Shown: piece by piece, positions 21,873 through 23,972 of the stretch
Numbering within the stretch: the stretch's first letter is position 1
How the letters are laid out: every line of letters starts with the position of its first letter
Sequence record: MF158045
DNA from: Shigella phage Sf22
Reading direction: 5' to 3' (one strand)
DNA: 64,000 nt
Made by a program: the position numbers and the translations under genes
Notes under the pieces: generated by a model
Seen by the model: only the letters and a program-made list of their open reading frames with translations
What the model was told of the DNA's origin: nothing
The model's database searches: none

Positions 21873-22733
21873 TTACACCGCCATCTTTCCTTTAATAGGA
21901 GGGTGTGATTCATAGTTGTTAAGAACAAAATTATGCGGCTTTGCGAATTGACTCAACCAAAATACCTGCGATTCTGTGTCCCATTCATCAAATTCATCTG
22001 GAAATTTTAATTGCAATTCGCATAAATCCATAGGTTCACGACGCAAAATTTCTTTACATTGCTCTACGTGATTCATATAGATATGAGTATTACCACCAGA
22101 AAATATCAAATCTCCGGGAATAAGATTACACATCTTAGCTACAATATGCGTCAAGGCAGCGTACGAGGCAATGTTGAATGGCAAGCCCAAGAAAACATCT
22201 ACACTTCTTTGGTACCACTGCAAATCCAAATAGCCATTACGCACATTAAACTGATAGAACATATGACAAGGCGGTAATGCCATATATTTAAGTTCAGCTG
22301 GATTCCACGCAGAAACAATTTGACGCCTATCATTCGGCAGTTTTTTAATACGATCAATAACTTCTACAATTTGGTCTACACCGCCAAAATCACGCCATTG
22401 TTTTCCATAAATTGGACCAAGTTCACCGCTATGGTATCCTAAATCTTTTGCCTGATTTTCGTAATTTTCATCCCAAACTGTTTTGCCTTGGATTAATGAA
22501 TCATGCTGAATTAATCGTAAATCATTGACATTTGTGCTTCCTGACAAAAACCATATTAACTCAGCAATGCATGCATTCCAGGCGAGCTTTTTAGTTGTTA
22601 CTGCAGGAAAACCTTTGGTTAAATCCCAACGCAATTTAGTACCGAACAAAGCAATTGTTCCTGTGCCTGTTCGGTCATCGGTTTCATAACCATTTTCAAA
22701 AATGTCTTTAATTAAATCTTGGTATTGTTTCAT
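21873..22733 (-). CDS. td: Thymidylate synthase, uninterrupted
   Basis: 286 aa continuous [29 protein letters not shown]...; no intron. Confidence 0.95.
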
Positions 22734-22777
22734 TTAGTACCTTATATAAATTATAATACATTTTATGAAGCTAATAA

Positions 22778-23137
22778 TTAATACGGTTTAGCATCAAATT
22801 TTCTCTCAATTTCAGGCGTGAAATATAATTCTTTACCGCGTTTGGAAAAACGACCAATAATATGATAATTATTCTCATCAAACGTGATATTGCCGATATC
22901 CATAGCTTTCAACCAAATATCGATATTTCTGTCAAGCTTTATATCAAAATTCCAATACGGAGAACTATTACCAAAAATACTGCAAGCGGATTCAGTGAAA
23001 CAACTGCTATAAATTTTGTCTTTAGGAACTATTAATTGATAGACGCCTTTAATAAACTGAGGACCTTGCCATTTTGGTTGTTTCGCGTCTTTTTCTAATA
23101 GAATAGGGTAATAATTAAAATTCATATTTTCCGCCAC
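22778..23137 (-). CDS. Hypothetical protein (119 aa from GTG, or 115 aa from ATG at ~23125) between frd and td
   Basis: ORF track; not recalled at this position in T4, where frd and td abut. Confidence 0.5.
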   Translation of the reverse strand: MAENMNFNYYPILLEKDAKQPKWQGPQFIKGVYQLIVPKDKIYSSCFTESACSIFGNSSPYWNFDIKLDRNIDIWLKAMDIGNITFDENNYHIIGRFSKRGKELYFTPEIERKFDAKPY

Positions 23138-23145
23138 GTATTATT

Positions 23146-23972
<827 letters not shown>

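Follow-up and report, generated by a model that had tools for sequence, protein, structure and literature searches.

By its sequence, the minus-strand ORF located between frd and td in the window (the whole stretch of 64,000 nucleotides analysed) is td.1, an already catalogued, uncharacterised gene of T-even phages, and not a novel one. It represents a real, intact gene under strong purifying selection and belongs to a family restricted to the frd-td interval of T4-like (Tevenvirinae) phages. The overall explanation favoured here, i.e., (i) a copy of td.1, (ii) a small family of the frd-td interval, (iii) an allele carrying a recombination scar, and (iv) a proposed binding role of the gene product, appears probable when taken as a whole.

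Gene boundaries and coding status

An earlier note on this DNA had reported a 360-bp ORF inserted between frd and td on the same strand, an uninterrupted td and direct adjacency of the two genes in T4. These observations hold: the ORF list of the window contains a minus-strand ORF of 119 aa with GTG start at 22778..23137, td is continuous, and frd and td of T4 overlap by 4 nt with no gene between them. The gene and its surroundings comprise the following features:

23146..23727, minus strand: frd (dihydrofolate reductase), upstream neighbour, 193 aa, 93.8 % identical to T4 Frd
23126..23137, minus strand: 12 nt 5' of the ATG of td.1, GTGGCGGAAAAT, containing the GTG of the maximal ORF and GGCGGA
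22778..23125, minus strand: td.1 CDS, short-form member of the frd-td interval family, ATG start, 115 aa plus stop
22734..22777, minus strand: td.1-td spacer, 44 nt, with the td ribosome-binding region (AAGG)
21873..22733, minus strand: td (thymidylate synthase), downstream neighbour, continuous ORF of 286 aa without group I intron or I-TevI

Judged from related sequences, translation of td.1 very probably starts at the ATG at 23125 (115 aa) rather than at the GTG at 23137. This ATG is kept in T6, the BASEL phages, NHEP29 and the loci L016, L030 and L031, and the N-terminus MNFNYYP is common to td.1 of T6, the BASEL phages, NHEP29 and L016. In the related loci L030 and L031, a 1-nt deletion between GTG and ATG places the GTG out of frame. 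Inspection of the sequence upstream of the GTG revealed no GGAG/GAGG core, and a weak Shine-Dalgarno-like GGCGGA is located just 5' of the ATG.

Compared to T6, FriedrichMiescher and NHEP29, td.1 displays dN/dS values of 0.013–0.05, based on 12–31 synonymous and 0–10 nonsynonymous differences (29 and 10, respectively, in case of NHEP29). The corresponding values are 0.03–0.10 for td and 0.14–0.20 for frd, i.e., td.1 is constrained as strongly as td and more strongly than frd. Of the two findings that would have spoken against the earlier note, presence of the ORF in T4 and lack of a coding signature, neither was obtained. Absence from T4 is also the sole support for regarding the ORF as non-functional or as a chance frame in the spacer, a reading already refuted by the coding signature and further contradicted by protein conservation across genera down to 17–30 % identity with invariant residues, and by a confident fold prediction (pLDDT 89); its probability is close to nil.

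The deduced protein shares 98 % amino acid identity with td.1 of T6 (AY262134.2, ABI48938.1) and matches PHROG 1928 (unknown function; E = 4.3e-35) with residues 8–115 aligned to profile positions 2–125 of 126; the HMM of its own family matches with E = 1e-32. Unnamed orthologous ORFs are present in T2, RB5, RB14 (RB32ORF229c), RB32, AR1 and many other phages. A literature search for td.1, RB32ORF229c or PHROG 1928 yielded no relevant discussion, and the paper that cites the T6 record (PMC2790892) is silent on td.1. GenBank labels of the gene are inconsistent, ranging from 'hypothetical protein' to 'putative dihydrofolate reductase' and 'putative homing endonuclease'; orthologues misannotated as DHFR or homing endonuclease are found, e.g., in OK272484.1, MW749001.1, MZ501066.1 and MZ501089.1. 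Neither of the two functional labels is supported by profile or fold searches.

Alleles of the frd-td junction among T-even phages

The whole frd-td.1-td segment is present in 353 of the 517 phage records matching the junction, and td.1 carriers amount to about 350–360 Tequatrovirus-type records with 95–99 % identity, including T2 and T6. A contiguous T4-type empty junction was found in only 32 records, about half of which are T4 isolates. The third allele harbours a different gene of 68 aa at the same place (about 135 records at ≥95 % identity). Tequatrovirus has three interchangeable alleles of the frd-td interval: td.1 alone (the majority, including the window), the 68-aa gene alone, and empty (T4). 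At this junction T4 is the minority type within its genus, and it is due to this reference bias that the ORF of the window looked extra.

Copies of the gene of the 68-aa allele are located as follows:

L009:752-958 (Yersinia phage fPS-90)
L007:2188-2394
L016:4670-4879

The 68–69-aa gene product begins with MSNKLKVKDVP..., and its gene takes the place of td.1 in the about 135 records of T-even type. The gene directly precedes td in Kanagawavirus and L016. Homologues with 43 % identity occur in unrelated Phapecoctavirus myophages, and the gene appears to move more widely than td.1, as far as can be judged from these matches. One record labels it 'flagellar biosynthesis protein'.

The td gene is joined from two pieces in T4 and T6, that of T4 being split by the I-TevI intron. 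A td with an I-TevI-type (GIY-YIG) intron is also found in Salmonella phage CGG4-1 and in the metagenomic contig L011; td of the window has none. Since td.1 occurs together with the td intron (T6) as well as without it (window, NHEP29), the presence of the two is independent, and hitch-hiking of td.1 on I-TevI homing was dropped as an explanation.

The family is missing from T4, the RB69-type phages FP43 and JK45, Aeromonas phage 31.2 and Acinetobacter phage ZZ1, in all of which td follows frd without an intervening gene. Shigella phage JK45 (L042, MK962757.1) is filed under Tequatrovirus in the taxonomy line of its record. Its Frd is 58–60 % identical to those of the window and T4 and 95 % identical to that of the Mosigvirus FP43; on this sequence basis the label looks inconsistent.

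The td.1 family and its synteny

When 1.8 billion representative proteins were searched exhaustively with the profile (E ≤ 1e-3), 43 clusters at 50 % identity were retrieved, whereas the word-indexed homologue search was insensitive (3, 10 and 7 hits). Two of the hits are short fragments; the full-length hits have 95–139 aa, with the exception of two large tandem-repeat proteins. The latter, P0038 (899 aa) and P0042 (928 aa), look like Ig-like repeat proteins and were judged spurious; the 6–8 short-stretch matches in each (E ~1e-7 to 1e-8) are probably compositional or repeat artefacts.

The family comprises two paralogous subfamilies: a short form (td.1-like, ~103–119 aa), encoded directly after frd, and a long form (115–139 aa) with an extra loop (W-x-L...PTIxxYKxNPxxY). 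Both forms are homologous (hhalign probability 99.6 %, E = 9e-24). Neither in the window nor in Tequatrovirus-type records (Escherichia, Shigella and Enterobacteria T-even phages) was a long form found; these contain the short form only. A scan of the 64-kb window with the family HMM revealed no second copy.

A small minus-strand frame (22771-22881) overlaps the 3' end of td.1 in the window and ends with ATG CTA AAC CGT ATT AAT TAT TAG (MLNRINY*). Its position is that at which the long-form paralogue begins in L016 (MLNLIKID...), and it may represent a stub of a deleted long-form gene; this reading is a weak one, because the shared bases also encode the conserved C-terminus of Td.1.

Altogether, 38 loci were scanned with the family HMM, Frd and Td, three of which yielded no family member (T4, fPS-90) or no interpretable result. 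The order frd, then one or two family members, then td is realised in all 32 complete loci, which include repeat samplings of the same phage and hence represent fewer independent lineages. Three further loci (L002, L012 and L033) are cut by a contig end and are consistent with this order. The common arrangement is frd-short-long-(68/69 aa)-td with usually overlapping start and stop codons, as represented in full by L016 (frd-short-long-69aa-td). The phages Mineola, CGG4-1, Moon, CHI14 and CIP9 as well as several metagenomic contigs have their family members in this interval; the records assign carriers to the genera Jiaodavirus, Gelderlandvirus, Moonvirus, Winklervirus and Kanagawavirus, and several metagenomic lineages are added to these. 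The family occupies the frd-td interval of at least seven other genera or lineages, and it retains this position down to 17–25 % identity.

Recombination scar and origin of the td.1 allele

The unit containing td.1 (416 bp) is bracketed by a 15-nt imperfect direct repeat, TAAATGAAA[T/C]AATAC, at 23152-23138 and 22736-22722:

23138..23152, minus strand: left direct-repeat copy, 15 nt, TAAATGAAATAATAC, comprising the frd stop TGA (23146-23148) and a dead td start
22722..22736, minus strand: right direct-repeat copy, TAAATGAAACAATAC, the true td start

The two copies, 416 bp apart, agree at 14 of 15 positions, and dinucleotide shuffling of the region gave an equally good repeat in 1.5 % of cases. 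All seven td.1-type loci that were inspected have the repeat; the T4 junction consists of a single copy. The left copy contains ATG AAA TAA (23149-23141; M, K, stop) in frame with td.1, the true td start reading ATG AAA CAA. The adjoining 12 nt 5' of the td.1 ATG (GTGGCGGAAAAT) align with GGTGAAAAGCG / GGTGAAAAACG, the codons for the Frd C-terminus (...VYGEKR) in L016 and L043. With about 12 of 18 bases matching, the alignment covers little sequence, and the assignment of the 12 nt as a relic of a foreign frd 3' tail is suggestive only.

Read in this way, the scar consists of the frd end, the first 12 nt of td (M-K-stop), an apparent foreign frd tail and td.1, in this order. Taken together, the dead td start and the apparent foreign frd tail indicate an origin of the Tequatrovirus td.1 allele by illegitimate joining of a genome with empty junction to one carrying td.1. 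The 15-nt repeat could equally permit precise loss of the unit, restoring the T4 arrangement. The empty junction of T4 may be ancestral or may have arisen by exact excision via the repeat. Simple loss of an ancestral gene by T4 was the first view; it was revised once RB69-type, Aeromonas and Acinetobacter phages had turned out to have empty junctions, and in view of the scar and the evidence for horizontal transfer.

This last evidence is an independent case, phage NHEP29. Identity to JK45 (empty junction) amounts to 97.4 % for its frd and 93.7 % for its td, and identity to the window to only 61 % and 78 %, respectively, as opposed to 88.5 % nucleotide and 93 % amino acid identity between the td.1 copies of NHEP29 and the window. 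The left joint in NHEP29 lies at the ATGAA common to the td and td.1 starts. From these comparisons, horizontal acquisition of td.1 into an empty junction is clear in case of NHEP29. The td.1 cassette is an ordinary gene of the frd-td interval moved by phage-phage recombination, and not a mobile element. With NHEP29 and the pseudo-td start, the junction provides a natural example of small genes moving between T-even genomes via microhomology where start and stop codons overlap.

According to the earlier note, the junction is a site of mobile-element traffic, and the ORF may be either a new accessory gene or what remained of a mobile insertion. Recent insertion of either into the frd/td junction of this phage would agree with the lack of the ORF in T4, the duplicated td start at the boundary, the horizontal cassette gain in NHEP29 and the polymorphism of the junction. 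It is nevertheless very unlikely, given that (i) the gene is the named td.1 of T6 (AY262134.2), with about 350 records at 95–99 % identity including T2, (ii) it is intact and under strong purifying selection, (iii) homologues occupy the same interval in many genera, and (iv) the junction contains no endonuclease, transposase or integrase gene and no inverted repeat in any locus examined, and the protein has no Pfam match. The claims of novelty and of a mobile-insertion remnant are thereby already refuted. What stands of the supposed traffic is gene exchange among three alleles, but with no mobility gene in the frd-td interval of any locus examined; I-TevI-type endonucleases inside td introns were the sole mobile-element genes observed. 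Likewise, the wording 'inserted' is justified with respect to the dead td-start scar and the gain in NHEP29, but not in the sense of a mobile element or an event specific to this phage.

A related possibility is that Td.1 acts as a free-standing homing endonuclease spreading by cleavage of empty-junction genomes, as its GenBank annotation in the BASEL phages FriedrichMiescher and KarlGJung implies. T-even genomes are rich in free-standing homing endonuclease genes (Edgell et al. 2010, PMC2988022), and the patchy presence of td.1 within Tequatrovirus together with one documented gain would fit. However, profile searches revealed no GIY-YIG, HNH, LAGLIDADG, PD-(D/E)xK or EDxHD motif or domain, the predicted fold is not that of a nuclease, and the synteny is deep and stable, rendering this possibility extremely unlikely.

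The td.1-td spacer

Over its last ~40 nt, the spacer shows no difference between the td.1-type Tequatrovirus loci that were inspected, even though td.1 itself has accumulated many synonymous changes. The spacer contains TTAGCTTCA, followed ~10–12 nt further on by TATAAT/TAATTT. Compared to the T4 middle-promoter consensus, TTAGCTTCA ... TAnnnT is a possible MotA-box-like element of a putative MotA-dependent middle promoter. A scan for sigma-70 promoters and terminators yielded nothing above shuffle expectation, and none in the spacer. T4 has no td.1-td spacer, and that of NHEP29 is only 15 nt long, with 28 nt of the window equivalent missing, including the promoter-like stretch.

Predicted fold and possible function of Td.1

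The earlier note had seen no recognisable catalytic motif, in agreement with the profile searches. Pfam gave no match at E ≤ 10 for the window protein and, for 8–9 homologues, nothing apart from a chance match to RecA (E = 0.08). NCBIfam likewise contained no match for the td.1 protein. A PDB sequence profile search pointed to the TagH ABC-ATPase (E = 6.5e-4 with a 9-sequence profile), which was rejected as a chance match when E rose to 0.11 with 45 sequences. In BFVD, only uncharacterised proteins of T4-like phages were matched.

AlphaFold2 prediction improved from a pLDDT of 77 with 11 sequences to 89.4 (pTM 0.82) with 45 sequences. The latter model displays the order β-β-β-helix-β-β, with predicted strands at residues 10–16, 31–38, 90–100 and 103–108, short strands at 52–54, 66–68 and 84–86, and a helix at 72–80. 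Residues Q20, W23, G31, Y33, G95, F97, K99, G101 and F106 are (nearly) invariant in the family. The window protein possesses all of Q20, W23, G31, Y33, G82-N83, G95-R-F-x-K-x-G101 and F106; at position 30 it contains K, with H in 80 % of the family. The conserved residues map to strand 2, the strand 4–5 hairpin and the loop that follows strand 1, positions which in an OB-fold would form the usual ligand-binding face. The family is mildly basic (median pI 8.8).

Td.1 would, in the reading proposed here, be a small, OB-like β-barrel produced from the same transcript as DHFR and thymidylate synthase, and its conserved face (Q20, W23, G31, Y33, G95-R96-F97-x-K99-x-G101, F106) might bind a partner in thymidylate/dNTP supply, either a protein of the complex or nucleic acid. 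Since T4, RB69-type phages and others do without the family, td.1 is dispensable and not required for the function of DHFR or thymidylate synthase. We propose, as a best guess of rather low probability, that Td.1 is a dispensable, non-enzymatic binding protein acting with the DHFR and thymidylate synthase module, whose ligand may be a partner of this module or nucleic acid. Synteny with frd and td can, however, persist in a compact phage operon without a functional link.

Alternatively, Td.1 could serve host takeover or anti-defence by neutralising a host factor, its location in an operon for nucleotide metabolism being accidental. Small size, an early-region operon, dispensability and the lack of an enzymatic motif would suit such a role, as would variability among close relatives, alternative alleles at the site and horizontal exchangeability. 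Counter-defence genes are usually more scattered, whereas this family keeps its frd-td position down to 17–25 % identity, often overlaps the neighbouring frames and forms two tandem paralogues. The very low dN/dS also argues against an arms-race gene. PADLOC gave no match either, but its library consists of defence and not of anti-defence proteins. On balance, a role of this kind seems unlikely.

Going beyond the binding role proposed above, one may speculate that the Td.1 family represents an OB-like adaptor which couples DHFR and thymidylate synthase or tethers both to gp32-coated ssDNA at the fork, the short and long forms possibly forming a heterodimer, and that the ATGA of frd stop and td start serves as microhomology landing pad for cassette swaps between co-infecting phages. 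This combined reading is quite unlikely. If the adaptor reading were true, a component of the T-even dNTP synthetase would have been missed because the model phage T4 lacks the family.

The results leave the current understanding of phage biology unchanged, and their value is modest. Being small, strongly constrained, uncharacterised and always encoded between the genes for DHFR and thymidylate synthase, the td.1 family represents a reasonable target for function screens; its fold is confidently predicted and has no close solved relative.

Comparison with known systems

The closest counterpart of the window gene is td.1 of T6, which agrees in frd-td position, strand and boundaries and differs by one amino acid change over the 115-aa CDS; T6 possesses a downstream td intron, which the window lacks. 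Long-form paralogues, e.g., of Citrobacter phage Moon (AIX12224.1) and Salmonella phage CGG4-1 (YP_009286586.1), occupy the same frd-td interval and share with td.1 the motifs Q..W, HGIY, GN and GRFxKxG..F.P, but differ by a ~20-residue insertion in the loop after strand 1.

The seg and mob genes resemble td.1 in being small, situated between conserved genes, variable among close relatives and transferable between co-infecting phages. In contrast to these, td.1 encodes neither a nuclease motif nor a nuclease fold and displays deeply conserved synteny, and its transfer is explained by ordinary recombination with microhomology at the ATGAA start.

As a possible component of the T4 dNTP-synthetase complex, Td.1 would associate physically with Td, Frd, gp42, NrdAB or gp32; synteny and overlapping frames are all that speaks for this. 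Among OB-fold nucleic-acid-binding domains, the RecO N-terminal domain, HIN, RPA70/Teb1, S1 and phage SSBs were considered for comparison; for a putative binding of ssDNA, RNA or an oligomeric ligand on the strand 2–3/L12/L45 face, the conserved W23, Y33, R96, F97 and K99 and the median pI of 8.8 are indirect hints only.
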